In this document: piece after piece, positions 11,204 to 47,933 of the stretch
Position numbering within the stretch: position 1 is the first letter of the stretch
Layout: the number at the start of each line of letters is the position of its first letter
Assembly: GCA_963793725.1 (NCBI GenBank)
Contig: CAWCAY010000002.1
Location: 91,526-155,525 of the forward strand
Direction: 5' to 3'
Length of the DNA: 64,000 nucleotides
From: an uncultured bacterium
GTDB lineage: Bacteria; JAUVQV01; CAWCAY01
Made by a program: the position numbers and the translations under genes
Notes under the pieces: generated by a model
What the model saw: only the letters and a program-made list of their open reading frames with translations
Told to the model about the DNA's origin: nothing
The model's database searches: none

Positions 11204-12433
11204 ATGAAGATACTGGTGCTCAATGCCGGCTCTGGCAGCCACAAGAGCTGCCTGTACGACCTGGGCGACCGCGCCGAGCCGCCCGACGCCCCCCCGCGAC
11301 CCGCCTGGCGGGCTCACATCGACTGGACGTCGGCCGAAGGGTCGGGGCGCCTCTCGGCCCGGGCGGGCGATGCCACGGTCGAGATCGCCCTGCCCACCGG
11401 CGACCGGCCGGCCGGCATGTCGGCCATGCTCGACACGCTCGTCTCCGGCCCGACCAGGGTGCTCGACCGGCTCGAGCTGATCAGGATCGTCGGCCACCGG
11501 GTGGTCCACGGCGGTGAGCACTTCACCGGCTCGGTCATGGTCACCCCCGAAGTCAAAGCGGCCATCGCCGAACTTATCCCCCTCGCCCCCGACCATAACG
11601 CCCACCAGCTCGACGGGATCGAGTCGATCGAGCGGGTCCTGGGCGCCGTCCCCCAGGCGGCCGTCTTCGACACCGCCTTCCACGCCACCCTTCCCCCGGC
11701 GGCCCGCGTCTACCCGATCCCGATCGAGTGGCGCGAGTGGGGAATCCGCCGATACGGCTTCCACGGCATCAGTCACCAGTACGTCTCGCGGCGGGCGGCG
11801 CTGCTCCTCGGCAAGCCGATCGGGAAATTGCGGATGGTCACCTGCCACCTGGGGAACGGTTGCTCGCTGGCGGCCGTCGACGGCGGGCGCAGCGTCGACA
11901 CGACCATGGGCTACACCCCGCTGGAGGGCTTGATGATGGGCGACCGCTCGGGTTCGATCGACCCGGGCATCGTCATCAACCTGATCCGGCGGCACGGCCT
12001 CTCGGCCGACCAAGTCGACTCGATGCTGAACGACTTCTCGGGGCTCAAGGGGGTCTCGGGGCTCTCCAGCGACATGCGCACCATCCTGGCGGCCCGCGCG
12101 GAAGGGAACGAGCGGGCCGGCCTCGCGCTGGACATCTTCGTCCACCGCCTCTGCTCGGGGATCGGCGCGATGGCCGCCTCCCTGGGCGGTCTCGATGCGC
12201 TGGTCTTCACCGCCGGCATCGGAGAGAACGCCCCGGTGGTGCGCGAGATGGCCTGCGCCCGCCTGGCCCACTTGGGGGTGGCCATCGACCGGGGCCGAAA
12301 CGCCGGTTGCCCGCCGGGGGCGGAGGTCGACGTGAGCGCGCCGGGGGCGGCCGCCAGGACGCTTGTCATCCCCACCGCCGAGGACTGGGCCATCGCCCGA
12401 AAGTGCTGGCGGCTCCTCCGCGAGCGAGCATGA
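11204..12433 (+). CDS. ackA: Acetate kinase
   Basis: [14 protein letters not shown]... and acetokinase signatures intact. RBS GAGAGG. The stop overlaps the next gene's ATG. Confidence 0.85.
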
Positions 12434-14250
12434 GCGGTCGGGCGCCGTCCTGGCCGGCGCGGCATCGGGCCGATTACCTGATCGTCTTCGCCGTGGCCCT
12501 GGTGCTGCGGCTGGTCTACCTGGCCGAACTGTCGCGCTCCCCCCTGCTCGACCTGCTGATCGGCGACGGCGAGATGTACAACGACTGGGCCAGGGAACTG
12601 GCCGAAGGGAACTGGATCGGCACCGGGGTCTTCTACCATTCCCCCCTCTACCCGTACTTCCTGGGATTGATCTACCTGGTCGTCGGCGCCCGGCCGCTGA
12701 CGGCCAAGCTGGTCCAGTGCCTGCTCGGGGCGGCGGCCTCGGTCCTCCTGGCCCGGGCCGGGCGGGCGGTGGCCGGCAGGTGGGCGGGCTTGGGCGCCGG
12801 CCTCGCCCTGGCTTGCCACCCGACGGCCATCTTCGCCGACGGCCTGATCCAGAAGTCGTCCCTGGACACCTTCTTCACCGCCCTGCTGCTCGCGCTCGCC
12901 TGCGGCCGGCCGCAGGGCTTCACCAAGGGCCGGTGGGTGGGCATCGGCGCGACTCTCGGCCTGCTGGTGCTGACTCGCGAGAATGCCCTCACGCTGCTCC
13001 CGGCGCTGCTGCTCTGGATCGCCGTCCTGTCCTTCCGCGACCGGCGGGCAGCCGCCGCCCGGATGGCCCTGCTCGGCGCCGGCCTGGCCGCGGTGCTCCT
13101 GCCGGTGGGCTTGCGCAACCTGGCCGTCGGAGGGGAGTTCCATCTGACCACCTCGCAGTTCGGGGCCAACTTCTACATCGGCAACCGGGCCGGCGCCGAC
13201 GGCCTGTACGAACCGCTGCGCCCCGGGCGGGGTTTCGCCGCCGGCGACCGGGGGGACGCCGCAAGCCTCGCCACGGCCCACCTGGGACGTCCGCTGTCGC
13301 CCCGCGAGGTTTCCTCCTACTGGACCCGGAAGACCCTCCGGGAGATCGCCGCCGATCCCGCCGCCTGGGTCCGTCTGCTGTTGCGCAAGCTGCTGCTGCT
13401 GGTCAACCGGGTGGAAGTGGCCGACACGGACGACGAGTACACCTATGGCGACTGGTCGGCGGTGCTGCGCCTGGGGGGCCTGCTACTCAACTTCGGCGTG
13501 CTGATCCCGCTGGCGACCGCCGGCGCCCTGCTCACCCTGCCCCGCTGGCGGGACCTCCTGGCGGTCCACCTGACCCTCGTCTTCTACGCCGCCGGCGTGC
13601 TCCTCTTCTTCGTCTTCGGTCGGTACCGCTTCCCGCTCGTCCCCGGCCTGATACTGCTGGCCGCCGCCGGATTGGCCCGGGCGCCGGCCGCCTGGCGCGC
13701 CTCCCCCAGGCGCCTCGCCGCCGCGGGCGCTGCCCTGGCCGTCGCCGCCGTGGCCGCCAACTGGCCGCTCATCCCCGACCGGCCGGTCATCGCCCGCTCG
13801 GTCATGTACAACAACATCGGCACCGGCCTGTGGAACCGCGACCGTGACCAGGGCGCCGCCGTGCCCTGGTTCGAGAAGTCGATCGCCCTGGCCGCCGGCT
13901 ACGCCGATCCGCACCGCAACCTTGGGGCCGTGCTGCGCCACTCCGGCCGCAACGCCGAGGCGGCCGAAGCCTACCGCAAGGCGGTCGAACTTCAGCCGGG
14001 GGGGGCCGATTCGTGGGAGGGCTACGGCATCTGCCTGACCAACCTGGGGAGGACCGCCGAGGCTCTCGACGCCTTCGGCCGGGCCCTGGCCTTGGACGGC
14101 AATCTGGCCACGTCGCACTGGGGCCTGGCGATCAACCTGGCCAAGCTCGGCCGTTCGGACGAGGCCCTCGGGCACTACGCCGTCGCCGCCCGGCTCGATG
14201 CGCGCTTCGCCCGCCCGGACAACCCGGCCATCGGCGGCCAGCCCCGGTAG
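12430..14250 (+). CDS. GT39/PMT_2-family (ArnT-like) membrane glycosyltransferase fused to C-terminal TPR repeats
   Basis: Multi-TM N-terminal region typical of the dolichyl-phosphate-mannose protein mannosyltransferase / ArnT family. TPR repeats at the C-terminus. ATGA overlap with ackA. Confidence 0.7.
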
Positions 14251-15801: not shown

Positions 15802-16419
15802 TCAGTGGGCGTGCTCGGCGGGCGCTTCGCCGCCGGCGTGGTGCGACGGCGGGTTGACCGCCGCCTGGTAGATCCGTTCGCCGTAGTGGATGAACTCCAC
15901 GTACGAGGCGACCCAGGAGCGGCCATGCTCGACATCGTGCGCGGCGTGCTTCTTGCGCTCGACGGTCTCCTCGAAGCGGTGGCGGATGCCGTGCTCGACG
16001 GCCTCGACCACCAGCTTCACCAGTCCCTCAACCTTCCCTTCGGCCAGCGCCTTGTCGGCGGCGACGATCGTCTCCTCCTCGACCCCGGCGGCCTTCAGGC
16101 CGGTGTAGGGCGCGCCCTCGCTGGCGCGGTGCACCCGGACAAGCGTCTCGAAGAAGTAGTAATCGGCCAGTTCCTTCGCCTCGGCGCCCTTGCCGCGAAC
16201 GGCCAGCGCCCGGGCGAAGGCCGCCCGCAGCTCCGGCTCTTCCTTGGCCGGGATCCACTTCAGCACCGGGGTGATGTCACCCTTCTCCAGCGCAACCCTG
16301 GCGTCGGTGACGACGGGACCGTCGAGGGTGTCGCAGTGCCCCCAGACCAACGGCGGCAGCGCGAGGAACAGCGCGGCGACAAGACCGGCAACCCCGAAAG
16401 AAACGTGTACCGAAAGCAT
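15802..16419 (-). CDS. Hypothetical secreted protein with His-rich C-terminus (possible metal binding)
   Basis: Signal-peptide-like N-terminus, HCDTLDGP motif, C-terminal PPSHHAGGEAPAEHAH. Confidence 0.5.
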   Translation of the reverse strand: MLSVHVSFGVAGLVAALFLALPPLVWGHCDTLDGPVVTDARVALEKGDITPVLKWIPAKEEPELRAAFARALAVRGKGAEAKELADYYFFETLVRVHRASEGAPYTGLKAAGVEEETIVAADKALAEGKVEGLVKLVVEAVEHGIRHRFEETVERKKHAAHDVEHGRSWVASYVEFIHYGERIYQAAVNPPSHHAGGEAPAEHAH

Positions 16420-16464
16420 GGCTCCCTCCCTCTATTTCCGCCCCGTGTGGGCGGGGGTTGAAGT

Positions 16465-16725
16465 TCAGGCCGGCGCGCCGGCGTCTGTGCCGGAGCGGCG
16501 GGAGAAGAGCACCAACAGGGCCGTCGAGGCCAGGACGACGGCCACGATCCAGAGGGCCAGGTTCCAGCCGAAGTATCCGGGCATCATCGAGGCCACCACC
16601 TCACCCGCCAGGGCGCGCTCGAACGTGCGAAAGACGGCCGGCGTGGCCAGGTAGGTGTAGAGCACGTTCCCCCCGGTCAGCAACGCCAGCGACAGCAGGT
16701 ACAACGACACCAGGAACCTCTTCAT
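16465..16725 (-). CDS. Small hypothetical membrane protein
   Basis: Two predicted TM helices; AAAAAGGAG RBS before the ATG at 16725. Confidence 0.45.
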   Translation of the reverse strand: MKRFLVSLYLLSLALLTGGNVLYTYLATPAVFRTFERALAGEVVASMMPGYFGWNLALWIVAVVLASTALLVLFSRRSGTDAGAPA

Positions 16726-16744
16726 GCTCTTGGCTCCTTTTTCG

Positions 16745-16942
16745 TCATAATTCGGGCCACTCCCCAATTATGTATGAGGCGATGTGGGTCAGGTACGCGG
16801 CACTCCTCATGCGAATATGAGCTTGCCGCGAGGTTGGGGGATGGGCCATGCACCCAGGTAGTTCGGGCACCTCCACGACAGCGGCGTTGTCCTCTCCACT
16901 CCGGTAGAGAATCATCTCGTACTTCACCTGGAGGCGACTCAC
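16745..16942 (-). pseudogene. HicB-like (UPF0150) antitoxin N-terminal remnant
   Basis: KYEMILYRSGEDNAAVVEVPELPGC resembles the HicB N-terminal signature; the rest is degenerate. Sits at the left edge of the lower-GC island. Confidence 0.3.
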
Positions 16943-16980
16943 GTCGTCAAGTTATTCCTGTGTCGAAGCGGAGTCAAGCG

Positions 16981-17002
16981 GGCCGGCGAACAGAGTCAGC
17001 GC
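16981..17002. repeat. Left copy of a 22-bp imperfect direct repeat (GGCCGGCGAACAGAGTCAGCGC)
   Basis: 20/22 identity with 21454-21475. The pair brackets the 1,438-aa ORF. Confidence 0.35.
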
Positions 17003-17113
17003 TGATCTTCGATAGTGGAGATGTCGGCCGGGCAAAGGCGTAGAGAGATGGTCGGCGAGTTGGCCGCACGAGTTGCCGGTGCGACTCGACACGCCGGCTC
17101 CCGGTGAACTAAC

Positions 17114-17127
17114 ATGTCAATTGACAT
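17114..17127. promoter_or_regulatory. Perfect 14-bp palindrome ATGTCAATTGACAT (candidate operator) in the 5' leader of the large ORF
   Basis: Direct reading; contains TTGACA. The track ORF's ATG lies inside it. Confidence 0.35.
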
Positions 17128-17239
17128 AACTTTGAGAAGTTGTCACAACAGTGCAATTCGCTCAACTCCAGAGAAAGGATCTTTCGGAGTCATGAGTCAG
17201 GCTTGGCGAAAGAGCATCTGGCCGCAAAGGAGAACGCAC

Positions 17240-20200
17240 ATGAAGGCCCCAAACCTACAGTCTGGCAGGCATGCCCTCGGCTGGCGCTGGGTCAAGCTCC
17301 TGGTAGGAGCATCTCTTGTCCAACTCGTCCTCCTGTGGACAATTCCGGTCTTCTCGGGCATTGCCTTTGCCATGTCCATTGACCGGTTCATCTTGACCCT
17401 GCCGAACTGCCGGCTGGAACTCGCCCTGGACACCGACGCTGCTGAGAAGCGGACATCCACCGTTGACATCTTCGTGGGGAATCAGGTGCTCTCCAGAGAC
17501 GGACAATGGGAGTACAAGAGACTCGATGGAGAACGTTTCCGCATTCGCCATCCAAAGTGGAGGGGCACGTACCTCGAGATTGATCCCGTCGCCGGGAGCG
17601 TCCTCCAGGGCAACGGCGGCCTGGAGGATGCGGCTTCGATGGGAAGCCCGCTCAGCGGAGCCTCCTGCCTCATCGACGAGGCGCGCCAGCGAGCCGTTCT
17701 TGCCTTGCCCGCGATATCACTGACCGCAAACGTGAACCCGAAGAAGGTGTCCATTGCCTTCGAAGGGTCGGCCGCGCCGGCCAAATCGGGTCCGTGGAAT
17801 CTATTGATGGTGCCCGAACTACAGGCCATTCGACTGGTGCTGGCCGAGGACAACTGCTGGCAGCTCGCCGAAACCGGGGTTTCGCTCTATCACCTGCGCC
17901 ACGACGACTGGGAAAAGAAAGGCCACTACTGGGAGGTGGATGCGGCGCTGCGGACCGTTTCCACGATTCGTGGCGAGCGTTTCGGCTCGCTGGGCGACAT
18001 TGGCCACCCTCTTCAGGCGGCTCTTGAGACCGAATTCGCCCCCAAGCGGGCCACCCGGGGTGTCACGTTCCGGGATGGACCAATGATCCCGCGCCGTGAC
18101 AAGCCGGATTCCCTCTTTGCACAACTGCTCCTCCAGGAATACGAATCCAGTGTCCCCGTCCTGCGCTCGGACAGCGATCCAGCCGCGGCCGGGAAGAAAC
18201 TGCCGCCTCCCTCAGCATGGATGGAAGCGGATAAGGCGAGATACTTCCGGGCACTGACGGAGGAGCGTTACGATGTGCTCATCGTGCCGTTTCAGGTCGA
18301 AGGCTTCGCCCTCGACCGGATTGAAAGGGCTCTCATGACGCGGTATCTGTACGACGCTGCGGGGCATTCCTCGGAATTCAAGCTTGCCAATCCCATCCTG
18401 GTGTTCCGAGCACTTGGTGATGGGGCGCGGACCATCTCCGACGACGAGATCTTCCGCTTGGCCAAGGAACTTGGAGTGAAGCTGCTTGTCCGATGCTTCT
18501 GCGGTCACAACCGTGAAGAGCGGATGACGGTGACCCTGCTGGTGCAGGAAAAGGCGCCCGGCATCCCGTTGGACAGCGGGACCACAACGAAGCGCCTTGT
18601 CTGGAACGATATTCCGTTCTCTGACGAGAGAATGCCCTCTGAGGCCTTCAAGGATATTCTGCACGAGGTGGTCGCTGGTATTCCGCTGGGGGAGAAGAAG
18701 CCGCCTGTCGTTGCACAATTCGCCGCTCCGGAGGAACTCCCCGTCCCGGGCACCCTGGAAGCGCTGGTCAGCGGAAGCGGGCTATCCGCCCTGAGAAGTG
18801 CCTTCCACCTGCAGTTGCTCGCACTCCTCTCCTTCGAGGAGAGCACAGCGCAAGAGGGTCTGCTGGAGCGTTCCCTTGTAGCTTTGGACGGCATCTCACC
18901 GGACTCGCCAGACTGGCGCCTCCTGAAGGCTACTGCCTTCGCCTGGCTCGGTCGCCGCCCGGCCGCCCTGGCCGCACTCGGTGCACCGCAAACACCCGAA
19001 GAATCATCCCTGGCCGCCTTCTTGAATGGGAATCTGCCGGCCATGGAGGAACAGGTCGGCAACATCCGCCGGCCGCTCCCGAGACTGATGGCCCGCATCA
19101 TGCTCGTCGATCTCAAGAGATCCTATGGCCGAGACCGAGAGATGATCGAGAAGGAGTGTCTCCTCCTGGCGAGCGAGCACCCGGATCTTGAAGCACTGTT
19201 GTCGGCCCGCCTGAGCGCCAAGGATGAGTGGGCATGGCCATCAAATGTCGGCGTCAAGGAGCAGCTCGACGCCCTGCTGCCCGTCCCCGAGTACCGGCTT
19301 GCGAGTCTGGTTGCCAGTGCAACCGCCTCCGGAAAAGAACTCTCGGAGGAGAACATCGATCAGGCCATCTACAACCACTACCACGAGGCCTTCAGGAGGG
19401 AGCTATTCGGCCAGAAGGATATTCCCTTCCCCGTCATGGCGGATGGGCTGGATCTTCTCTTTGAGCACTTCCAAGCCAACCACGTCAAGCGGATCCGGAG
19501 GATGGTCCTCTCGCAAGGCAACCACTCGTCTGCCCTCGAGTCGATGAGCCACGACGAATCCCTCTGGCGGGACCACCCGGAGCTCTCCTATCTGAAGGCG
19601 ACAGCCATCGGCAACCTGGGCCGAAGGGAAGCCGGTGAAGCGGGGAGGAGGATGGAGCAGGAAGCGGTCGAGATCGCGCAAAGGGTGTTCTTCTGGTCGG
19701 GAGGGCAGACGTGGGTTGCCAGTCGTCTGCATTCTCATCTTCCCCAAGGCCTTTACGCGCTCCCCTCCTATGATGGCGACTTCCCCCGACGCCCCTATTG
19801 GTACTTCGGCAGCGTTGGTGACCGGAAGAAGTTCAGGTCTTTCCACCTCGGTCCGGCTTCCAGTGGACTTCCCGAAACCACGAAACACGACCTGAAAAAT
19901 GCCGCCATCAGTCTCGCATACACGCGAGACAACTTGCTGATACTGAAGAACCTCTTCCGGAAACTCACAACGGATGGCCTTCCCGGTGACGCTCGAGCCG
20001 TGCTCGACGCCAACCGTCACCGATTCGACGGCCATCCTCTCTGGCCAGACCTGTTGACCAGCGTAGACGGCGAGGCCGAGGAGAAGAAGTCGATCCTTCG
20101 GAAGGCGATGTCCGACAATCCGCTGAACTGGGATGCCCACAACAAATTGGCCATGCTATCGATAGCTGAAGGCGACTTCGCCAAGGCGGCGGAGACGTTC

Positions 20201-21430
20201 ATGATGTTCCCACCGTTCCATCAGCCCGAGATGATGGACAACGTCCAACTGTCGCATGCGGCCTACAATGCAGCGCAGGAGCTGTTGTTCCGAGGGGCGA
20301 CGGATGAAGCGATACCGTTCCTGAAGATCGCCGTCGCCTTGGGCACGGGTTCCTCTTCCGAGATGGGGGCAGCCGGCTATCTGGCCCAACTGAGCGGCGA
20401 CTATGCCCAAGAGGCGGTTGAGTTCCTGCGGAGGTGCAACCGCTACCACCACCGCGGTGCCTATGCGCTCTACTTGTCGATCCTGCACCTTGCGGGCTAC
20501 CACGACGAGGCCAAGGCACTCTTCGACTCGCTCCAGGCGAAACCTGGCGAAAACGAGTTGTGGGGCGTTCGGGTCACCGCGTTACGGGTCACCGGGAAGT
20601 CCGATGAAGAGATTCGTGACTGGTTCCAGGAGAGCCCGATGGGCAAGGGATTGCTCCACCTCAATGACGGTCAGGTGCTCATCCCCGCCTTCCTGGTCGA
20701 CCGTGGCCCGAATGAATTCCTACAGCAACTTATCATCGCCCGACAAGACGCGGGAGAAGTATACGCGCTCTGGTTCGCGGAAGGATGCCGACTCATCCTG
20801 CAAGGCAGGTACCTCGATGCCTACCGCACCCTGCGCACGCGAGTGGCACCGCCATGGGAGACCAGCCTGCAGGAGTACCGCTATGCGCTGCCGGCCTTGG
20901 CTTGGAGCGCTGTGAAGAGCGGCCAGACCAGAGACGTTGAAGATCTGCTGGCTGTCTACCGGTCGGCCAGGGGAGATGACTTCCACTACTTCCTGGCTCA
21001 AGCGTGCATGAGCGGGCAACGGGGGAATGTGGTCCACGCTGAAGCGCTACTCAAGAAGGCTCGGCAGTTCATCGACATCGATTACCCGCCGATTTTCCAC
21101 TCCTATCCCTGGTATCAACTCCTGGAAGCGGCGGAATGGATACTGGAAGAGACAAAATCTCCGGTGCTGCGCGATCTCATCCTGCAGTGGTCGAGGTCAT
21201 GCCAGAAGATATACCCGTTCCAGCCGTGGGGCTATTCATTTGAGGCGCGCCATACCTCATCCGCGGAAGACCGGCGCCGCTCGCTGGGGATGACCCTCTA
21301 CTTGGATCGGAACAGCCTGCGGATCGCTGGCTTCACCGCTGACGAGAAGGAGAAGGCCTCGGAATGGGTGAAGGAGAACAACCCCTTCAAGTTGCCAGGC
21401 AGAGAAGAGACAGAGACACGAGTTCCGTAG
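17240..21430 (+). CDS. Large hypothetical protein (about 1,396 aa from this start): N-terminal signal/TM anchor, then extensive alpha-helical TPR-like repeats; no recognisable catalytic domain
   Basis: Long uninterrupted ORF in the lower-GC region. AGGAGA RBS 7 nt before the ATG at 17240. Hydrophobic WRWVKLLVGASLVQLVLLWTIPVFSGIAFA near the N-terminus. The track ORF starts at 17114. Confidence 0.7.
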   Translation: MKAPNLQSGRHALGWRWVKLLVGASLVQLVLLWTIPVFSGIAFAMSIDRFILTLPNCRLELALDTDAAEKRTSTVDIFVGNQVLSRDGQWEYKRLDGERFRIRHPKWRGTYLEIDPVAGSVLQGNGGLEDAASMGSPLSGASCLIDEARQRAVLALPAISLTANVNPKKVSIAFEGSAAPAKSGPWNLLMVPELQAIRLVLAEDNCWQLAETGVSLYHLRHDDWEKKGHYWEVDAALRTVSTIRGERFGSLGDIGHPLQAALETEFAPKRATRGVTFRDGPMIPRRDKPDSLFAQLLLQEYESSVPVLRSDSDPAAAGKKLPPPSAWMEADKARYFRALTEERYDVLIVPFQVEGFALDRIERALMTRYLYDAAGHSSEFKLANPILVFRALGDGARTISDDEIFRLAKELGVKLLVRCFCGHNREERMTVTLLVQEKAPGIPLDSGTTTKRLVWNDIPFSDERMPSEAFKDILHEVVAGIPLGEKKPPVVAQFAAPEELPVPGTLEALVSGSGLSALRSAFHLQLLALLSFEESTAQEGLLERSLVALDGISPDSPDWRLLKATAFAWLGRRPAALAALGAPQTPEESSLAAFLNGNLPAMEEQVGNIRRPLPRLMARIMLVDLKRSYGRDREMIEKECLLLASEHPDLEALLSARLSAKDEWAWPSNVGVKEQLDALLPVPEYRLASLVASATASGKELSEENIDQAIYNHYHEAFRRELFGQKDIPFPVMADGLDLLFEHFQANHVKRIRRMVLSQGNHSSALESMSHDESLWRDHPELSYLKATAIGNLGRREAGEAGRRMEQEAVEIAQRVFFWSGGQTWVASRLHSHLPQGLYALPSYDGDFPRRPYWYFGSVGDRKKFRSFHLGPASSGLPETTKHDLKNAAISLAYTRDNLLILKNLFRKLTTDGLPGDARAVLDANRHRFDGHPLWPDLLTSVDGEAEEKKSILRKAMSDNPLNWDAHNKLAMLSIAEGDFAKAAETFMMFPPFHQPEMMDNVQLSHAAYNAAQELLFRGATDEAIPFLKIAVALGTGSSSEMGAAGYLAQLSGDYAQEAVEFLRRCNRYHHRGAYALYLSILHLAGYHDEAKALFDSLQAKPGENELWGVRVTALRVTGKSDEEIRDWFQESPMGKGLLHLNDGQVLIPAFLVDRGPNEFLQQLIIARQDAGEVYALWFAEGCRLILQGRYLDAYRTLRTRVAPPWETSLQEYRYALPALAWSAVKSGQTRDVEDLLAVYRSARGDDFHYFLAQACMSGQRGNVVHAEALLKKARQFIDIDYPPIFHSYPWYQLLEAAEWILEETKSPVLRDLILQWSRSCQKIYPFQPWGYSFEARHTSSAEDRRRSLGMTLYLDRNSLRIAGFTADEKEKASEWVKENNPFKLPGREETETRVP

Positions 21431-21453
21431 TGGTGCAGACAGGGGGCAAAGCA

Positions 21454-21475
21454 GGCCAGCGAACAGAGTCGGCGC
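21454..21475. repeat. Right copy of the 22-bp imperfect direct repeat (GGCCAGCGAACAGAGTCGGCGC)
   Basis: See 16981-17002. Confidence 0.35.
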
Positions 21476-39663: not shown

Positions 39664-40068
39664 ATGCCTTCGACCGCCGAATACCGCCGCAACCGGGGCC
39701 GGCCAGCCGGCTTCACCGTCATCGAGCTGATGGTCGTCCTGGTCATCCTGGGGCTGATCGCCAGCCTGGTCTACCAGGCGGTCATTCCCAAGGTCGACGA
39801 GGCCAAGCACAAGACGGCCAAGGCCCAGATGGAGATTCTCGGCCTGTCGCTGGACAACTACCGGCTCGACGTGGGCACCTACCCGCCGGCGCTGGACGAG
39901 CTCGTCTCGTCGTCGGCCACCGGCTGGAAGGGCCCCTACCTGAAGAAGGCCGTCCCGGCCGACCCGTGGGGGAACCCCTACGTCTACGAGGTGATCGACG
40001 AGGGGAAGGACTACCGTCTCGGCTGCACCGCCGGCGGGTCCGACGTGGTCATCAAGAGCTGGGAGTGA
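39664..40068 (+). CDS. gspG: Type II secretion major pseudopilin GspG
   Basis: Prepilin cleavage/methylation motif GFTVIELMVVLVILGLIA and the GspG-typical DPWGNPYVY; GGGGAGG RBS. Confidence 0.85.
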   Translation: MPSTAEYRRNRGRPAGFTVIELMVVLVILGLIASLVYQAVIPKVDEAKHKTAKAQMEILGLSLDNYRLDVGTYPPALDELVSSSATGWKGPYLKKAVPADPWGNPYVYEVIDEGKDYRLGCTAGGSDVVIKSWE

Positions 40069-40543
40069 CCCTCCGCCGCCGGGCTGCCGGCCTGACCCTG
40101 ATCGAACTGTCGGTCGTCCTGGTCATCATGGGGCTTGCGCTGGCGCTGGCCATGCCCTTCGTCGGCCGGGGGATGGAGTCGGTCCGCATCGCCGCCGGGC
40201 GCCGCCGGGTGGTGTCGTTCCTGACCGACGCCGGGGTGCGCGCGGTCAATACCGGCAAGCCGGTCCTGGTGGGCTACGATTTCGCCTCGAACACCTTCTC
40301 CCAGACGCTCTCCGGCGAGCCGAAACCGAAGAGCAGTCTCACCCTGCCCGAGGGGCTGCGGGTCACCCGCGTGGAGTCCCCCTCCGGGGAGGGGGGAGAG
40401 GGGGAGAGGTTACCCTCCTGTTTTTCCCATTGGGGGACTCCAGCGGGGCCGTATTCCATCTCGAGGAGTCGGGGGGGCGCCACTTCAGCGTCACCGTCGG
40501 GCGGCTCGACCCGTTGCCCGTCGTGGCCGCGGAAGCCGACTGA
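40066..40543 (+). CDS. Minor pseudopilin (GspH-like), frameshift in a G-rich run near 40390
   Basis: Prepilin N-terminus GLTLIELSVVLVIMGL. The plausible C-terminus (...GEVTLLFFPLGDSSGAVFHLEESGGRHFSVTV...) is in the +1 frame after GGGGAGGGGGGAGAGGGGGAGAGG. Confidence 0.5.
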
Positions 40544-40561
40544 CGCCCGCCCCGCTCCCCG

Positions 40562-40747
40562 TCAGATCGTCCTGCCGACGGCGAACTCCCCGTTGATCCG
40601 GTCGGCCACCGCGGTCAGCAACGGCCGGTCGAACAGGCTCCCGTAGCGGACCACCATCCGGTCGATGATCCGCAAAGTCACGAAGCGCCCGTGTTCGCGA
40701 CTGATCTCGTCGAGCATCAGTTCCCTGGCAAAGTCTTCCCGGTTCAT
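40562..40747 (-). CDS. Small hypothetical protein (61 aa)
   Basis: AAGGAAGGA RBS before the ATG; no family recognised. Confidence 0.4.
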   Translation of the reverse strand: MNREDFARELMLDEISREHGRFVTLRIIDRMVVRYGSLFDRPLLTAVADRINGEFAVGRTI

Positions 40748-40880
40748 GATCGTCCTTCCTTTCGCACATGAATGTGGTCCATGTTCTGTTTCGACGCGGA
40801 ATGTCGCCATTTGGTTCCCGAGAATCGGGACACTCGCCATTTGTGATTCGCGGCGGGGCCGATTTTTGTATAATGGAGGG

Positions 40881-42599
40881 ATGGACATCATCTTCCTGCA
40901 CGCGCCGAGCGTCTTCGACTTCCGCAAGGAAGCCATCTTCTTCGGGCCGATCAGCGACATGGTCCCCTCCACGCCGGTATTCGAGATGTACCCGGTCGGG
41001 CTGGCGTCGATGTCGGCCTACCTGGAGGAGCACGGCATGCGGGCCCGGATCGTCAACCTGGCCTACCGGATGCTGGCCTCGCCGCGATTCGACCCGGCGG
41101 CCATGATCCGCAAGCTCGACGCGCCGGTCTTCGGCATCGACCTGCACTGGCTGCCGCACGCCCAGGGGAGCATCGAGGTGGCCCGGCTGGTGAAGGAGAT
41201 CCACCCGAAGGCCAAGGTGCTCTTCGGCGGCCTGTCGTCGAGCTACTTCCACCGGCAACTGATGGACTACCCCCAGGTCGACCTGGTGCTGCGGGGCGAC
41301 TCGGTCGAGGAGCCGCTGCGCCAGTTGCTGGTTGCCCTGCGCGACGGGGGCGACCTTTCCACCGTGCCCAACCTGACCTGGCGGGACACCGACGGCACGG
41401 TCCGGGAAAACCCGTTGACCCACGTCCCGACCGACCTCGACTACACCGACTTCAGCTACCGGTCGGTGATGAACCAGGTCTTCCGCCACCGCGACCTCCG
41501 CTCGGTGGTCCCCTTCCAGAACTGGGTCTCGTACCCGGTCACGATGCCGCTATTGTGCCGCGGCTGCACCGAGAACTGCGTCATCTGCGGCGGCTCCCAG
41601 TACGCCTTCCGGAACTCCTTCGGCCGGACCGAACTGGGGGTGCGCTCGCCGGCGCGCTACGTCGACAACATCGTCCAGCTATCGCGCATGGCCCACACGC
41701 CGGTCTTCCTGGTGGGGGACATCCGCGTGCCCGGAATGGCCTTCGCCGACGAGGTCCTCGACCGGCTGGCCCGGGCGAAGGTGGAGAACGAGATCGTGTT
41801 CGAGTTCTTCCGAGGCGTGGACGAGCCGTTCATGCGCAAGCTGGCCGCGGCGGTGCCGGTCTTCTCGATGGAGATGTCGCCCGAGACGCACGACGAGCGC
41901 ATCCGGATGGCTTCGGGCAAGCCGTACTCCACCCTCGATTTCGAGAACACGATCCGCTTGGCGCTGCAGTACGGGGCCAAGAAGGTCGACATCTACTACA
42001 TGGTCGGCATCCCGCGGCAGGACTATGCCTCGGTCATGGAGACGGTCGACTACTCCCGCCACCTGATCCGCGACATCGGACACCGGCGCAACGTCTTCCC
42101 GTTCATCTCGCCGCTGGCGCCCTTCCTCGACCCGGGAAGCATCGCCTTCGAGGAACCGGAGAAGGTCGGCTACAAGATGCGCTTCCGCACGCTGGAGGAG
42201 CACCGGCGGGCGCTGCTCGCGCCGAGCTGGAAGTACACCCTCAGCTACGAGACCGAGTGGCTGAACCGGGACGAGATCGCCGATGCCACCTACGAGGCGT
42301 CGCTGCGCCTGATCGACATCCGGGCCGAGGAGGGGATCCTCGACCGGAAGAAAGCGGCCGTGCAGCGGTCCAAGATCGCCGATTCCCGACGGATCATGGC
42401 CGAAATCGACGCCATGGTTGCCGCCGACGGAGTCGACCGGCTCAAGGCGGGGGACATCTACCGCCAGCGGATCGACAAGAAGCGTGTATCGGCCCTGATC
42501 GACAGCCAGGAACTGATGTCGATCCTCCCCGGCCACGGGCTGCGCCTGCGCGGCCTGCTGGGGAGCTACGCCCGCTGGATCACCGGCGGGCGGGCATGA
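40881..42599 (+). CDS. B12-binding domain / radical SAM domain protein
   Basis: N-terminal B12-binding-like region, then CRGCTENCVICGG containing the CxxxCxxC radical SAM motif. GGAGGG RBS; TATAAT lies 6 nt upstream of the ATG. Confidence 0.75.
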   Translation: MDIIFLHAPSVFDFRKEAIFFGPISDMVPSTPVFEMYPVGLASMSAYLEEHGMRARIVNLAYRMLASPRFDPAAMIRKLDAPVFGIDLHWLPHAQGSIEVARLVKEIHPKAKVLFGGLSSSYFHRQLMDYPQVDLVLRGDSVEEPLRQLLVALRDGGDLSTVPNLTWRDTDGTVRENPLTHVPTDLDYTDFSYRSVMNQVFRHRDLRSVVPFQNWVSYPVTMPLLCRGCTENCVICGGSQYAFRNSFGRTELGVRSPARYVDNIVQLSRMAHTPVFLVGDIRVPGMAFADEVLDRLARAKVENEIVFEFFRGVDEPFMRKLAAAVPVFSMEMSPETHDERIRMASGKPYSTLDFENTIRLALQYGAKKVDIYYMVGIPRQDYASVMETVDYSRHLIRDIGHRRNVFPFISPLAPFLDPGSIAFEEPEKVGYKMRFRTLEEHRRALLAPSWKYTLSYETEWLNRDEIADATYEASLRLIDIRAEEGILDRKKAAVQRSKIADSRRIMAEIDAMVAADGVDRLKAGDIYRQRIDKKRVSALIDSQELMSILPGHGLRLRGLLGSYARWITGGRA

Positions 42600-43733
42600 G
42601 CGGGAAGACCACCCCGACCCCGGTGCTGCTGCAGCAGGCCTCGTACGACCGGATGGCGCCGGCCGTCGACGAGGTCTTCCGGCGCTTCCCGATGCCGCTG
42701 GCCGGAGCCCGGGTGCTGGTCAAGCCGAACATGCTGGGGCCCTACCCACCCGGGCAGGGGGTGACCACCCACCCATCGCTGGTCGCGGCCGTGGTCGACC
42801 GGATGCAGAGCCGCCGGCGCGGTCGTCCAGGTCGGTGACAACCCCGGCGCGCGCGGCTACGGCATCGGACGGCGCTGCGGCGAGGTGACCGGCATCCAGG
42901 AAGCCTCGCGGGGGTGCTACACGGTCATGGGCGAGAGCGCCGTCGAGGTGCCCGTCGATTCGCCCTTCACCCGCACCGTGCGGGTGTCGCGCCAGGTGCT
43001 CGAGGCCGACCTGGTGATCAGCCTGCCGAAGATGAAGACCCACCTCCAGACGCTGATGACCGGCGCGGTAAAGAACACGTACGGCTATCTGGTTGGGGCC
43101 GACAAGTCGCGGCTGCACGCCGTGGCACGCCGGAAGCGGGAGTTCGCCCGGGTGGTGGCCGACGTCTTCTCGATCAGGCCGCCCCACCTGACGATCATGG
43201 ACGCGGTCACGGCCATGGAGGGGGACGGCCCGTCGAACGGCTCGCCCAGGGAGGTCGGCCTGCTGATCGCCTCGACCGACGCGGTGGCGGTCGACCGGCT
43301 GGTCTGCCGGCTGATGGGCCTGCCCGAGGATCGGGTCCTCTACCTGGCCGAGGTGCGCCGGCAGCACCCCGCCATGGGCGAATACGCCATCGACGGGATC
43401 GATTTCCCGGGGGCGATCCCCAGTTGGCGGTTACCGGCCTCGTTCGCCCGGGATTTCGTCAGCTGGGTGGGCAACGCCGTCCTCTTCTCGTTCCTGCGCA
43501 AGGCCCGCCTGCGGGTGGACTGCCGTCGCTGCACCGCCTGCGGCATCTGCCGGGACGGCTGTCCGGTGGGAGCCATCGACATGTCATCCGGCTGGCCGGT
43601 GATCGACGCCCGGGCCTGCATCGCCTGCTACTGCTGCCACGAACTCTGCCCGGCCGGGGCGATCACGCTGACCCCGCTGTTGCGCCGCGCGCTCCACGGC
43701 CCCGCCGGTCACGACTGCCCGGGGCGGCGATGA
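42596..43733 (+). CDS. DUF362 domain Fe-S protein with C-terminal 2x[4Fe-4S] ferredoxin domain; 1 frameshift near 42818
   Basis: ATGA overlap with the rSAM stop. DUF362-like core (LVISLPKMKTHLQTLMTGAVKN..., MDAVTAMEGDGP). C-terminal CRRCTACGICRDGCP ... CIACYCCHELCP. Confidence 0.65.
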
Positions 43734-43800
43734 CCCAGCCAACCACCCGGCTGGGGCGCCTCCCGTTGACAGGGGCCAGCGGCCAGCCTACCATCAACCC

Positions 43801-44208
43801 ATGGGACGTCTGCCGACGGAACTGCGGATCGAGACCGGCACCAGGACCCAGTTCCTGGACATCACCACCGAGGTCGCCCAGGCGGTGCGCGAGGCCGGCT
43901 TGTCCAACGGCACGGTGGTCGTCTTCGTCCCCCACACCACCGCCGGGATGACCATCAACGAGCACGCCGATCCCGACGTGGTGGCCGACCTGATCGCCGC
44001 CCTGGATCGCCTCGTCCCCTGGAAGAGCCATTACGCCCACGCCGAAGGGAACAGTGCCGCCCACATCAAGGCCTCCCTGATCGGTTCCTCGGTCACCGTG
44101 CCGGTCGGCGCCGGCAAGCTCCTGCTGGGCACCTGGCAGGGGATCTTTCTGGCCGAGTTCGATGGGCCCCGCTCCCGCCGGGTCCTGGTTTCCTGCCTCC
44201 CCGCCTGA
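43801..44208 (+). CDS. YjbQ/UPF0047 family protein (secondary thiamine-phosphate synthase enzyme family)
   Basis: Full-length UPF0047 match (VVVFVPHTTAGMTINE...). Confidence 0.8.
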   Translation: MGRLPTELRIETGTRTQFLDITTEVAQAVREAGLSNGTVVVFVPHTTAGMTINEHADPDVVADLIAALDRLVPWKSHYAHAEGNSAAHIKASLIGSSVTVPVGAGKLLLGTWQGIFLAEFDGPRSRRVLVSCLPA

Positions 44209-44244
44209 CCGGGGACCTACCGGAGCGAGGAGAGAGCGGACGGC

Positions 44245-45298
44245 ATGTGCGAGTTCTGCACCCAGCATGGCGAGGGGAAGGTCTGGTACCTTGAGGCCCG
44301 CAACCACTCCCGCGAGCTGATGGACCGGCTCGGCGTGGAAGCGCGCCACCAGTCGCACTCCGGCTCCTTCGAGGATTCGATCATCCGCCTCTACACCCTG
44401 TACGACAAGCTCTCGCCGCTCTGGCGCCGCGTCGGCTGGCTCAAGCGGGCCGGGCACGACTGGGCGGTGCGAAAGTACAAGAAGAAGCACTACGGCCAGA
44501 TCGTGCCGCGCGAGCATGTCCACCGCATCTTCCAGATGACCCAGTCGATCGTGCGCCTGCCGTGCACCTGCCGCCGCTTCGTCCGCGGCAAGCCCGAGGC
44601 GCGCTACTGTTTCGGGCTGGGATTGGGCCCGGCGGGGTACCGGGAATCGGATCCCTTCAGGGCCGACCTGGAAGTGCTGACTCCCGAAGCAGCCGCGGCC
44701 ATGACCGATGCCTACCAGCGCGACGAGGGGCTGATCCACACCGTCTGGACCATGCCCAGCCCGTTCGTGGCCACCATTTGCAACTGCTCCCACCGCGACT
44801 GCGGAGCGCTCTTCACCACCTACCGGATGGGCATCGAGGTCCTCTTCCCCGGCGAGCACAAGGCCGTGGTCTCAGACTCGCTCTGCCGCCGGTGCGACCG
44901 CTGCGTCAAGGCCTGCCCCTTCGGGGCGATCACCCCCGGGAAGGGCGGCCGGCCGGTGGCCGTGGTCGGCTTCCTGTGCCAGGGCTGCGGCCTCTGCCGC
45001 CAGGCGTGCCCGCACGGGGCGCTGGCCCTGGGGGGCCTCGACGACGGCCGCCACCCGCACGAACACGAAGGGCTCCATGGGCACCCCGATCAGCCTTGAC
45101 ACCGCGGCGTGCCCCGGCCCCTTTCCCTGCGGGCGCTGCCTCGACGCCTGCGACGAGGGGGTGCTGATGGCCCGTCCATTTCCGACGGACCTGGGTGGCA
45201 AGGAGTACCGGGTGGTGATCGTCCTGCGCCACCGCTGCACCGGCTGCCGGCGGTGCGTCGAAGCCTGCCCGGCCGGCTGCATCCGCGTCGGCGCCTGA
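44245..45298 (+). CDS. Cys-rich iron-sulfur protein with multiple 4Fe-4S ferredoxin motifs; probable frameshift in a G6 run near 45055
   Basis: CxxC and CxCx4C motifs, CRRCDRCVKACP and CQGCGLCRQACP. The downstream ORF 45077..45298 (CGRCLDACDEG... CTGCRRCVEACPAGC) is probably its C-terminus. Confidence 0.5.
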
Positions 45299-45448
45299 AG
45301 CACCCGGGCAGCACCCGGAGGCACCCGTCACCGAAATCGTGCCCAATTTGTGCCAATTTTGGCAACTTTGTGCATACAGCTTGCCATTCCGCCATTCTTT
45401 CACTTCGAAATCGTTGCCTCCGGCCGGAATTTCGCTTATGTTTGACTT

Positions 45449-47221
45449 ATGGGCACCGACGACGCCTGTCCCTCGAACGGGACGGGCCATGGTTTTCTTT
45501 CCTCGATACGCTTCCGCGTAATGGCCCTGGTGTTGATTGCCGTCCTGGTTCCGTCCGTCTGCGCCGGCTTCGTCGCCTGGCGGTTCCTCAAGAGCAACAT
45601 GGAGAAGGCCATCCACCGCGAACTGGAGGCGACCGCCATCAGCCGCGGCGAGCGCGCCGTCGAGTGGCTCAGCCAGCGGCGCGCCGAGATGAGCGCCATC
45701 AACCGGGAGCAGTCGCTGTTGCAGGCCGAGCGGGAGGGCCTCCTCTCCGGTTCGGCCATGTCGATCGAGATCATCCGCGAGAACCTGCGCTTGCAGAAAG
45801 AGAACTACGACGGTTTCACCGCCTTCGCCCTGATCGACCAGAACCACGCGGTCATCGCCCAGGCGCCGGCGAGCTACATCGCCTCGCCCTTCCCGCCTCT
45901 CCAGACGCCCATCCCGGCCGCCGACAAGGGTGAACTCCACCGGGTCTCCGGGTGGCACAACCTGGTGATCGCCGAGCGGGTGATCGAGGCCCCCGGCCGC
46001 TCCGGTTCCGGCCCCAAAAGCATCACCCTGCTCGGCTTCATCGATCCGGAATCACTCGAGCGCCACCTGGCTGACGACAACACACACAACCTGAAAAGCT
46101 ACCTGGTGACCGCCGACGGGAAGGGCGCCTCCCCATCGGCCAAAGGCATCTCGGCCGACCAGGTCAGGCGGCTCATTGGCGAGTCCCTGCCGGCGAATGA
46201 CATCCGGCCATACACCGGCGCGGGCAGGATGGATGCCCTGGGCATCGCCTTCAAGCTGAGGGAGTTCCCCGTCATCCTGGTGAGCGAATCGGCGCGCGAG
46301 GAGATCCAGGCGGCGCTGTCGGGGCTCCGCCAAAGCATGGTGACGGTCATTCTCGTCATCACCGTGCTGATGCTGGTGCCGAGCCTCCTCCTGGCCAGGT
46401 CGATCATCCTTCCGCTGGAGGATCTGAGCCGGACGGCCAAGCTCATCCGAGAGGGGCGCCTCGGCCTGGCGGCCACGACCAAGGCCGGCGGCGAACTGGG
46501 CCGCCTGACGGCCAACTTCAACGACATGTCCAACGTCCTCAAGACGATCATGGACGAACTGACCCTGGCCAACGCCCGTTTGAACATCCTCTCCACCACC
46601 GACCACCTGACCGAGATCCGCAACCGCCGCTTCCTGATGGACCACCTGCAGGAGGAGATCAAGCGGTCGACGCGCACCGGAGAGCCCCTGTCGGTCATCA
46701 TGCTGGACATCGACCATTTCAAGAGCTTCAACGACCGCTACGGGCACAAGGGAGGGGACGCCGCCCTCAGGGAGGTCGCCCGGAGGATCGTCACGGCGGT
46801 CAGGGAAACCGACATGGTCGGCCGGTTCGGCGGCGAGGAGTTCCTGATGATCCTGCCCGACACCGACAAGGCCGGGGCCATTGCCGTAGCCGAGAAGGTC
46901 CGGGTCGAGATCTCCAGCCGCCCGCTGGAGCTTGAAGGCGAGAACGCCACCGGCCTGACGGTCAGCCTGGGGGTGGGCACCCTCCCGGAAGACGCCGACA
47001 CGGTCGACCGGCTGGTGGACAGCGCCGACCGGCAGCTCTACCGGGCCAAGAACTTCGGGCGCAACCAGGTCGGCAACCTGGTCCGGTCCGTGACCGAAAG
47101 GATGGACACGCCGGATGACCCCAGCGCGGCCTTCACTTCTGGCTCAGCTTCTGGAAGCGGGAGTATATCCCCGAAATCTGCGAAAAATAGAACGCCGCGC
47201 CGGCCGAGTTCTCCTTCTTGA
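45449..47221 (+). CDS. Membrane sensor diguanylate cyclase (periplasmic Cache-like sensor, HAMP, GGDEF)
   Basis: TM helix, extracytoplasmic region, second TM plus HAMP, GGDEF domain with GGEEF and RYGGEEF. Exact start is uncertain; the C-terminal tail overlaps the next gene and may be shorter. Confidence 0.75.
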   Translation: MGTDDACPSNGTGHGFLSSIRFRVMALVLIAVLVPSVCAGFVAWRFLKSNMEKAIHRELEATAISRGERAVEWLSQRRAEMSAINREQSLLQAEREGLLSGSAMSIEIIRENLRLQKENYDGFTAFALIDQNHAVIAQAPASYIASPFPPLQTPIPAADKGELHRVSGWHNLVIAERVIEAPGRSGSGPKSITLLGFIDPESLERHLADDNTHNLKSYLVTADGKGASPSAKGISADQVRRLIGESLPANDIRPYTGAGRMDALGIAFKLREFPVILVSESAREEIQAALSGLRQSMVTVILVITVLMLVPSLLLARSIILPLEDLSRTAKLIREGRLGLAATTKAGGELGRLTANFNDMSNVLKTIMDELTLANARLNILSTTDHLTEIRNRRFLMDHLQEEIKRSTRTGEPLSVIMLDIDHFKSFNDRYGHKGGDAALREVARRIVTAVRETDMVGRFGGEEFLMILPDTDKAGAIAVAEKVRVEISSRPLELEGENATGLTVSLGVGTLPEDADTVDRLVDSADRQLYRAKNFGRNQVGNLVRSVTERMDTPDDPSAAFTSGSASGSGSISPKSAKNRTPRRPSSPS

Positions 47222-47909
47222 GTTGTGCCTCCCCCTCGTGGAGGTGCCCCCGGGCATATCCCGCCAGTTCGACCGCCGCCGCTGACTTGACCGTTTCCAT
47301 CCGCTGGACCATGACCTTCGCTTCGGCGTGCATGGCCGCCACTTGCTTGGTCGAGTACTTCCGGACGTTCTCGATGATCTCGGCGGCTGAGGCCTGGGCG
47401 TCGCCGAGCTGGCTCTTCAGCTCCCTGACGGTCAGCTCGGCCTGGGCGAGTTCGTTGCGTAGCGCCCCGTTCTTCAGCCGGTAGCGCTCTACTTCCTCCT
47501 TGAGGCTCCTGATCCTCGTTTCCCAAGCCTGCCGGCTCACCACCCCCGCTTCCATGGCAGCCGTCCCGCCTCCGGCGGCCAGTTCCACCCGCAGGGTATC
47601 GAAGAGCGGCGCCATGGCCTCCTCGAGGCGCGCGAACCCGGCGGTGTCACCGGCATCCCGTGCGACGGCGAGTTGGTCGAGGAGGGCGTCGAGACGCCCC
47701 ACCTGGTAGGGGACGGCGCGCATGCCGGCCTCCCGCTGGTCGTTCAGTTCCCGGGCGGCCCGGGTGTAACGGTCGGCAAGTGATTCACGCCCCGGCAGTT
47801 GCCCCGAGGCGGCGGCACGGGCGGCCGGTTTCGACGGCTGCATCAACGCGCAACCCACGCCCGCAAGAACCAGAATGAACGCCACCATCAGTATCTTCCG
47901 CATACGCAC
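47133..47909 (-). CDS. Coiled-coil lipoprotein, hypothetical
   Basis: Lipobox LVLAGVGC followed by coiled-coil-prone sequence. Confidence 0.5.
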   Translation of the reverse strand: MRMRKILMVAFILVLAGVGCALMQPSKPAARAAASGQLPGRESLADRYTRAARELNDQREAGMRAVPYQVGRLDALLDQLAVARDAGDTAGFARLEEAMAPLFDTLRVELAAGGGTAAMEAGVVSRQAWETRIRSLKEEVERYRLKNGALRNELAQAELTVRELKSQLGDAQASAAEIIENVRKYSTKQVAAMHAEAKVMVQRMETVKSAAAVELAGYARGHLHEGEAQLKKENSAGAAFYFSQISGIYSRFQKLSQK

Positions 47910-47933
47910 GCTCCATGAAAGGCGGTTCCACCA

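Follow-up and report, generated by a model that had tools for sequence, protein, structure and literature searches.

Background

Several radical S-adenosylmethionine (SAM) enzymes that depend on cobalamin, including TsrM, TokK, CysS, MgmA, OxsB and AprD4, have a Rossmann-type B12-binding domain at the N-terminus and a radical SAM barrel after it. Mmp10 and MgmA, both of them B12-dependent, are methylases of methyl-coenzyme M reductase. In archaea, B12-dependent radical SAM enzymes perform cyclization and methylation of glycerol dialkyl glycerol tetraether lipids (10.1101/2025.10.20.683597), and the Synechocystis protein Slr0320, also of this type, has been speculated to methylate quinones (PMC8065906). 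The menaquinone C-methyltransferases MenK, MqnK and MenK2 are class C radical SAM enzymes (PMC8065906 and references therein). Here, we describe a predicted cobalamin-dependent radical SAM protein that is encoded beside a DUF362-ferredoxin gene in a 64,000-nucleotide (nt) stretch of DNA from an uncultured bacterium (contig CAWCAY010000002.1, positions 91,526 to 155,525). This whole stretch is hereafter called the window.

The locus spans positions 40562-45298 and comprises one small minus-strand open reading frame (ORF), a 133-nt intergenic gap and five plus-strand ORFs, in a window with a G+C content of about 68%. An initial annotation of the sequence had described four genes, for a radical SAM protein, a DUF362-ferredoxin, YjbQ and a Cys-rich ferredoxin protein, as an uncharacterized system that might modify a cofactor or small molecule. 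The reading that we favor, although tentatively, is narrower. In this reading, the locus holds a real operon, confined to a single lineage, in which a B12-dependent radical SAM protein related to quinones or to complex I is coupled to a LarA-like DUF362-ferredoxin as its redox partner.

A radical SAM protein of the TIGR04190 family

The radical SAM gene (40881-42599, plus strand) encodes 572 amino acids (aa), as first annotated. Its product matches both the Pfam B12-binding family (PF02310, E = 1.2e-12, residues 32-141) and the Radical_SAM family (PF04055, E = 3.3e-08, residues 226-390). Assignment to a subfamily with hidden Markov models (HMMs), which the initial annotation had recommended, gave a near full-length match: residues 2-529 match positions 1-525 of the 554 in the NCBIfam model TIGR04190 (B12_SAM_Ta0216) with 661.9 bits, where the curated equivalog cutoff is 500. 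The protein is a member of TIGR04190, a catalogued but uncharacterized family. The family is large, with at least 7,762 proteins at E <1e-10 when 8,000 candidates were scored, and thus has thousands of members. We found no published function or experiment for it, and literature searches on TIGR04190, on Ta0216, on DUF362 with radical SAM, and on B12-dependent radical SAM enzymes with menaquinone returned nothing relevant. To this extent the system is indeed uncharacterized, but the family at its center had already been catalogued.

The protein resembles other TIGR04190 members in its domain order, its cluster-binding motif and its conserved C-terminal domain. The extended motif CRGCTENCVIC, noted previously, occupies residues 226-236 (nt 41556-41588). 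When 19 family members were aligned, all of them shared C229, C233 and C236, and conservation of C226 was at least 90%, so that the cluster motif is C229-x3-C233-x2-C236 with a conserved extra cysteine just before it. Because it is conserved across these members, the extended motif is a trait of the family. Only these three or four cluster cysteines are conserved in the alignment, and there is therefore no sign of an auxiliary Fe-S cluster.

The predicted structure agrees with the domain matches. We compared an AlphaFold2 model (predicted local distance difference test, pLDDT, 82.3) with known structures by using Foldseek, and the best matches in the PDB are all cobalamin-dependent radical SAM enzymes. 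TsrM (E = 9e-20, query template modeling (TM) score 0.58), TokK (2.5e-16, 0.55), MgmA (3.5e-15, 0.47), CysS (3.3e-14, 0.56) and OxsB (1.2e-13, 0.55) were matched with probability 1.00, and AprD4 was also among the best matches (7.7e-14, 0.54). The model has the two-domain organization of these enzymes, with TM scores of 0.47-0.59 at only 11-17% sequence identity. The modeled fold is that of a class B, or cobalamin-type, radical SAM enzyme, and cobalamin binding is predicted, in line with the B12-binding-like N-terminus recognized in the initial annotation. The matched enzymes comprise methylases and nonmethylases alike. A sequence search of the PDB with the protein gave no match.

A possible functional analogy with MenK, MqnK and MenK2 is that, in some TIGR04190 loci described below, a radical SAM gene also stands beside late menaquinone genes, and its product would act to change the naphthoquinone ring. 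However, the protein in the window does not belong to the family of these HemN-like enzymes and differs from them in radical SAM class: a B12-binding domain is present and a HemN-like domain is absent. No HemN-type family is among its Pfam and NCBIfam matches, and the Foldseek match to a HemN fold is weak (TM score 0.30).

Conservation of the gene cluster

In the window, the TGA stop codon of the radical SAM gene and the ATG start codon of the DUF362-ferredoxin gene (42596-43733, plus strand) share positions 42596-42599, so the ATGA overlap reported initially is real. (The DUF362-ferredoxin gene is broken by a 1-nt insertion near position 42809, which is considered later.) Seven related lineages hold this core. 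By our own labels for loci and contigs, these are the window, L001/L088 (radical SAM protein 97-98% identical to that of the window), L086 (96%), L002 (72%), L003 (68%), L091 (67%) and the P0006 contig (57%). All seven carry a small divergent ORF, the radical SAM gene and the DUF362-ferredoxin gene in the same order. The latter two genes overlap by 4-28 nt or sit 1 nt apart in every relative, which supports the proposed tight coupling down to 57% identity.

The genes surrounding this core are shared as well. The gspEFGH genes lie upstream in all relatives, and ccsA-like, CBS and enolase genes lie downstream wherever the contig is long enough (window, L001, L088 and P0006 contig). Because these unrelated flanking genes are equally shared, we regard conservation within the lineage as synteny by descent and not as independent evidence. 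Other parts of the cluster vary. YjbQ is missing in L002 and present in most other relatives, the Cys-rich protein and its accompanying small ferredoxin are missing in L003 and the P0006 contig, and L086, L091 and the P0006 contig contain additional, inserted ORFs of 133-164 aa.

Co-occurrence outside the lineage was assessed from both sides of the gene pair. On the radical SAM side, a genome scan provided 80 loci at 44-52% identity, with no close relative among them; most are from Chloroflexota, and others are from Thermodesulfobacteriota, Actinomycetota, KSB1 and, in one case, Bathyarchaeota. A DUF362 gene is a neighbor in a single one of these 80 TIGR04190 loci, where it is on the convergent strand, and YjbQ, the Cys-rich protein and the small ferredoxin are found in none of the 80. 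Among 80 metagenome loci with DUF362-ferredoxin homologues, none has a related radical SAM gene, one has YjbQ, and no neighbor recurs in more than seven. The genome-context search suggested by the initial annotation thus uncovered no independent co-occurrence of DUF362, a B12-dependent radical SAM gene and UPF0047.

As judged from gene order, the combination of radical SAM, DUF362, YjbQ and Cys-rich genes is not a conserved multigene pathway, but a lineage-restricted arrangement. The cluster is best divided into a lineage-specific radical SAM/DUF362-ferredoxin pair, a facultative YjbQ gene and an independent two-gene Fe-S unit, because these parts vary within the lineage and separate elsewhere. 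The idea of a single recognizable four-gene pathway is accordingly not supported by co-occurrence. The initial annotation had reasoned that a well-characterized radical SAM subfamily with unrelated neighbors elsewhere would reveal a fortuitous gene order. Neighbors elsewhere are indeed unrelated, but the subfamily is catalogued without having been characterized.

An integrated pathway, in which the radical SAM protein, DUF362-ferredoxin, YjbQ and the Cys-rich protein jointly make or modify a novel cofactor or small molecule, has some points in its favor. The genes are co-directional and closely spaced, their order is kept in the window, L001, L088, L086 and L091, the overlap of the first two persists down to 57% identity, and in the distant locus L098 a DUF362-ferredoxin gene is likewise directly preceded by YjbQ. 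However, the relatives that keep this order share unrelated surrounding genes too, and the losses and insertions just described also count against joint function. The counts from the two sets of 80 loci point the same way, as do the occurrence of the Cys-rich protein and ferredoxin elsewhere as a separate pair or apparent fusion and the presence of a promoter-like site ahead of yjbQ (both discussed below). We therefore consider an integrated pathway unlikely.

Two further observations concern the sources of the relatives. L001 and L003 both come from assembly GCA_040960625.1, which consequently holds two related populations with different versions of the locus (radical SAM proteins 98% and 68% identical to that of the window). 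L086 originates from a rice-root iron-plaque metagenome.

Genes associated with TIGR04190 in other phyla

To describe the genomic contexts of TIGR04190 generally, we clustered ORFs within 7 kb of the radical SAM gene in 81 loci (the 80 loci above plus L001-L003, less two loci without a full-length radical SAM ORF). The commonest neighbor is a MenA-like 1,4-dihydroxy-2-naphthoate (DHNA) polyprenyltransferase. Of the 81 loci, 24 have this gene, which usually stands on the same strand directly upstream of the radical SAM gene; none of the 24 is L001, L002 or L003. UbiE/MenG is encoded in 12 loci and scores 241 bits against TIGR01934, for which the cutoff is 158.

Genes for complex I form a related context. 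In four Dehalococcoidia metagenome-assembled genomes, the radical SAM gene lies between nuoC and nuoD (L011, L044, L065 and L078, each at approximately 9500-12900); it overlaps both genes in L044 and is tens of bases from both in the other three. It also abuts nuoB in L023, L033 and L064. When neighbors were recounted with HMMs, MenA-like, UbiE/MenG or nuoB/C/D genes were found within 1.5 kb in 34 of the 80 loci; of the 51 loci in which both flanks extend for 3 kb or more, 26 had such a gene. Within the same distance, MenA-like or UbiE genes occur in 27 loci and nuo genes in seven.

These quinone-type contexts are distributed over several deep branches of a neighbor-joining tree, in Dehalococcoidia, KSB1/'Cytophagia', Actinomycetota and Bathyarchaeota. 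In the same tree, the clade of the window is a separate deep branch, and nearest to it is the Bathyarchaeota locus L085. This locus has UbiE and MenA-like genes nearby, as well as an ORF that, by eye only, resembles a polyprenyl synthase. L043, a locus from Actinomycetota, has the radical SAM gene followed by UbiE and then by an ORF resembling an amidohydrolase, again by eye only.

Possible functions of the radical SAM protein

The MenA-like, UbiE/MenG and nuo neighbors across phyla are the basis for relating the radical SAM protein to quinones. Under the favored reading, the protein would act on a prenylated naphthoquinone or a precursor of one, most simply by C-methylation, because no chemistry would be simpler for an enzyme of class B. 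Less probably, it would act on the quinone-binding module of complex I. In the lineage of the window, DUF362-ferredoxin would pass low-potential electrons to the [4Fe-4S] cluster of the radical SAM protein, to cobalamin or to both; alternatively, it might catalyze an adjacent redox reaction on the same substrate.

Several points weigh against this proposal. The link to quinones is carried over from homologues that are only 45-52% identical, and the clade of the window, being a separate deep branch, could have a different substrate. MenA, UbiE and nuo genes are absent from the 64-kb window, in which tblastn gave only ferredoxin-domain cross-matches, and from the loci of the relatives. Although the MenA-like neighbor has a best NCBIfam E value of 3e-44, it scores 151 bits where the cutoff is 277, and enzymes of the UbiA family also serve lipid and heme pathways. 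Not all class B radical SAM proteins are methylases, and AprD4 and OxsB are among the fold matches. We purely infer the electron-donor role of DUF362-ferredoxin, whose homologues elsewhere have no recurrent partner. Also, no published experiment on the TIGR04190 family was found in the literature.

Moreover, a second recurrent context appears to have no obvious link to quinones. In 13 Anaerolineae loci (L006, L009, L010, L012, L016, L017, L026, L039, L041, L048, L055, L070 and L075), the radical SAM gene is immediately downstream of a gene for a MoxR-type AAA+ ATPase, and in several of them a DUF58 gene then follows. MoxR-type ATPases are generally viewed as protein-complex maturation factors. 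Thus, TIGR04190 genes in other phyla neighbor MenA-like, UbiE/MenG, nuo or MoxR/DUF58 genes, whereas coupling to DUF362-ferredoxin is seen only in the lineage of the window.

The UbiA-type neighbors could instead indicate lipid chemistry, with the radical SAM protein methylating or cyclizing a membrane lipid or isoprenoid chain in the manner of the archaeal B12-dependent radical SAM enzymes Grs, Gmm and Cgm or of HpnR, a hopanoid methylase. The archaeal tetraether-modifying enzymes cited above count for this alternative, and TIGR04190 is named for a Thermoplasma protein, Ta0216. Secondary NCBIfam matches of the radical SAM protein include HpnR (E = 5e-10) and HpnJ (E = 6e-06), both far below their cutoffs. 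The UbiA family includes archaeal lipid prenyltransferases, which the neighbor matches weakly, and IspD and IspF are encoded near the radical SAM gene in approximately 10 Dehalococcoidia loci. However, the UbiA-type neighbor fits DHNA polyprenyltransferase models best (E = 3e-44, versus 1e-7 for lipid prenyltransferases), and it is often joined by UbiE/MenG, which is above its own cutoff. The location of the radical SAM gene inside nuo operons also indicates quinones or complex I, and the ispDF-cysS block, which runs on the opposite strand, represents a common housekeeping neighborhood. On balance, a role in lipid modification seems improbable.

Finally, the radical SAM protein might modify another protein post-translationally, such as a subunit of complex I located close to where quinone binds. 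Methylation of methyl-coenzyme M reductase by Mmp10 and MgmA is a precedent, and one of the closest fold matches is MgmA (E = 3.5e-15). The tight packing of the radical SAM gene against nuoC and nuoD in L044, L011, L065 and L078 fits this explanation, as does its position between MoxR-type ATPase and DUF58 genes in Anaerolineae. However, MenA-like or UbiE genes are adjacent approximately four times as often as nuo genes (27 versus seven loci), and no nuo genes are near the radical SAM gene in the lineage of the window. We judge protein modification to be quite unlikely.

Beyond the single operon, it is possible, if doubtful, that TIGR04190 as a whole is an unrecognized class of cobalamin-dependent radical SAM enzymes in anaerobic quinone metabolism, and that the lineage of the window recruited DUF362-ferredoxin as a dedicated redox partner. 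In that case, the family might modify menaquinone, by methylation or otherwise, in a manner convergent with the class C enzymes MenK and MqnK, or it might participate in maturation of the quinone site of complex I.

The DUF362-ferredoxin gene

The initial annotation treated the DUF362 gene as a single open frame, which does not hold for the sequence of the window. The N-terminal part (42596-42838) matches positions 1-32 of the Pfam profile PF04015 with 27 bits, and the C-terminal part, in frame 0 and ending at 43733, matches positions 65-200 with 133.7 bits and includes the ferredoxin domain. The gathering threshold is 24 bits in each case, and the total over the two frames is approximately 160 bits. 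Alignment with L001, L088 and L086 places a single extra base near 42809, between the two halves. In every relative examined, the gene is uninterrupted, matches PF04015 and, where complete on the contig, encodes 375-401 aa; the intact L001 orthologue is 378 aa.

This insertion is not the only one of its kind. In comparisons with relatives at 93-95% DNA identity, lone 1-nt indels were also located at 38937 in gspF, 40400 in a gspH-like gene and 50481 in the enolase gene, as well as at 33436 and 36128. The C-terminus of enolase is visibly out of frame. Also, the ORF at 9827-12433 joins phosphoketolase C-terminal domains to acetate kinase, and the two frames appear to be merged. Given the similar lone indels in gspF, the gspH-like gene and the enolase gene, and the intact DUF362-ferredoxin gene of relatives, the frameshift is most likely a sequencing or assembly error. 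The assembly seems indel-prone, and any apparent pseudogene in the window should therefore be regarded with caution.

A true pseudogene or programmed +1 frameshifting, which would imply an operon that is decaying or recoded and would be compatible with any of the functions considered above, is suggested by the split frames as given (the N-terminal frame stops at 42838) and by an insertion outside any homopolymer run, but it is very unlikely and was rejected in favor of assembly error, because the gene is uninterrupted in relatives at 93-94% DNA identity, the site has no conserved slippery motif, and the pattern of isolated indels across the window, which extends to an essential glycolytic gene (enolase) and to the merged phosphoketolase and acetate kinase frames, fits assembly error.

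To our knowledge, the DUF362 domain has no known function. An AlphaFold2 model of the intact L001 protein (pLDDT 84.6) has its best Foldseek matches in the LarA family of lactate and malate racemases, and these are weak (TM scores 0.36-0.39, E values from 5e-5 to 2e-3); ferredoxins were matched as well. The likeness to LarA proteins is one of fold only, at 8-14% sequence identity, and LarA lacks the C-terminal 2x[4Fe-4S] ferredoxin domain that the DUF362 protein of the window carries. DUF362 does share a Pfam clan, CL0471, with the N-terminal domain of LarA (PMC11770544). A sequence search of the PDB retrieved matches to the ferredoxin domain only. That domain has eight invariant cysteines at positions 312-351, as is typical of a 2x[4Fe-4S] ferredoxin, and K147-T148-H149, K159, K170 and H174 are also invariant among the aligned DUF362-ferredoxin proteins. 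Because of the LarA-like fold match and the invariant ferredoxin cysteines, the modeled protein appears to be a redox enzyme, or a protein for electron transfer, by itself.

YjbQ and a two-gene Fe-S unit

The yjbQ gene (43801-44208, plus strand) encodes a 135-aa member of YjbQ/UPF0047, as annotated initially, with matches to PF01894 (E = 1e-44) and to TIGR00149 (153.2 bits, cutoff 67.75). In L098, on a distant metagenome contig, YjbQ lies directly upstream of DUF362-ferredoxin (7546-9065). This is the only independent recurrence of a gene pair from the radical SAM cluster involving YjbQ and DUF362-ferredoxin, and it could be due to chance.

What had been described as a single Cys-rich ferredoxin protein is encoded by two ORFs on the plus strand, one for a 284-aa Cys-rich protein (44245-45099) and one for a 73-aa 2x[4Fe-4S] ferredoxin (45077-45298) that matches Fer4_7, Fer4_6 and Fer4_9. 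One long Cys-rich gene ending at 45298 was considered and ruled out: the ORFs are in different frames, gene prediction treats them as two genes in L001, L002 and L088, and they are separate neighbors in the distant genome L173. The N-terminal 200 aa or so of the Cys-rich protein belong to no Pfam family and contain the cysteine motifs MCEFC, PCTC and CNCSHRDC. Fer4 families match residues 207-260 only, and the C-terminus is a 2x[4Fe-4S] ferredoxin domain.

Proteins similar to the Cys-rich protein (approximately 270-285 aa, 35-42% identity over about 92% of the length) are present in many anaerobe phyla. The family has an N-terminal signature, MCEFCTQHGEGK...WYL, that corresponds to no Pfam domain. 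By tblastn, the small ferredoxin accompanies the Cys-rich gene wherever the latter is present in relatives. In L173 (6001-7063), a Cys-rich gene is followed by a separate, adjacent gene for a 77-aa ferredoxin. Another homologue, P0286 (347 aa, L175, 6001-7044), has a C-terminal extension that bears the cysteine pattern of the small ferredoxin. This extension looks like a fused ferredoxin when read by eye, which was necessary because MAFFT left the stretch unaligned to the 73-aa protein. No radical SAM, DUF362 or YjbQ gene is near the Cys-rich/ferredoxin genes in L173 or L175. These arrangements point to a widespread, unnamed two-component Fe-S protein, whose parts are a Cys-rich protein and a ferredoxin about 75 aa long.

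Upstream sequences and putative promoters

The minus-strand ORF at 40562-40747 (61 aa) diverges from the radical SAM gene. All relatives have a predicted ORF of 61-100 aa in the corresponding place, and tblastn identities are 47-95% in L001, L088, L086, L002, L003 and L091. A Pfam scan of the 61-aa product gave no match. This ORF may encode a small regulator of the operon.

The intergenic region ahead of the radical SAM gene (40748-40880) was studied in an alignment of relatives. A GTTCC block approximately 60-110 nt upstream of the gene is invariant in six aligned sequences, all of which also have -10-like hexamers. In both the window and L001, a perfect TATAAT sequence (40869-40874 in the window) ends 6 nt 5' of the radical SAM ATG, and because of this short distance the transcript may be leaderless. 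A consensus promoter scan did not flag the TATAAT site, and so we infer a promoter there from its sequence and position. A longer leader with a GGAGG ribosome-binding site is present in L086 (5806-6010), L002, L003 and L091. An Rfam scan of the whole window detected no riboswitch or other RNA family, and there is therefore no cobalamin riboswitch upstream of the radical SAM operon.

The promoter scan did flag TTGACA-17-TACCAT at 43766-43794 on the plus strand, ahead of yjbQ. This site agrees with the consensus at 10 of 12 positions and is the sole site in 40000-45600, where 0.3 would be expected by chance. As a consensus match, it may give yjbQ and the genes downstream their own transcription start.

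Other features of the window

The initial annotation had placed the cluster between gsp genes and a gene for a GGDEF sensor. Both flanks are present in the window, with gspE, F, G and H upstream and the GGDEF gene (45449-47221) downstream, but the conserved 61-aa minus-strand ORF intervenes. The GGDEF gene and a 258-aa gene on the opposite strand (47133-47909) are found in the window and L086 and are absent from L001 and L088. Positions 45333-47932, directly downstream of the cluster, thus represent an insertion/deletion polymorphism among close relatives.

Two features lie farther upstream. From approximately 16000 to 25400, G+C content falls to 60-62%, in comparison with about 68-70%. This region was probably acquired horizontally as an island; it encodes a restriction-modification enzyme of the Eco57I/MmeI type (1053 aa, 22197-25358, minus strand) and has several short ORFs. 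Another gene for a GspE-like ATPase (25683-27073, minus strand), with about 71% DNA identity to L001 gspE, is broken up into three or more short ORFs, either by decay of a paralogue or through further indel errors.

Conclusions

The four-gene cluster is itself of modest importance: it is confined to one lineage, and it combines a radical SAM protein from a catalogued family with Fe-S proteins of common types. The lead most worth following is the repeated association, in Chloroflexota, Actinomycetota, KSB1 and Bathyarchaeota, of TIGR04190 with late menaquinone genes and complex I operons. If TIGR04190 does form a class of quinone-related enzymes and the lineage of the window recruited DUF362-ferredoxin as a partner, DUF362, a large domain family, would gain its first functional context. 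If TIGR04190 proteins modify quinones, anaerobic quinone biosynthesis would include an additional, B12-dependent step, and this knowledge would help in interpreting the respiratory chains of abundant uncultured anaerobes.

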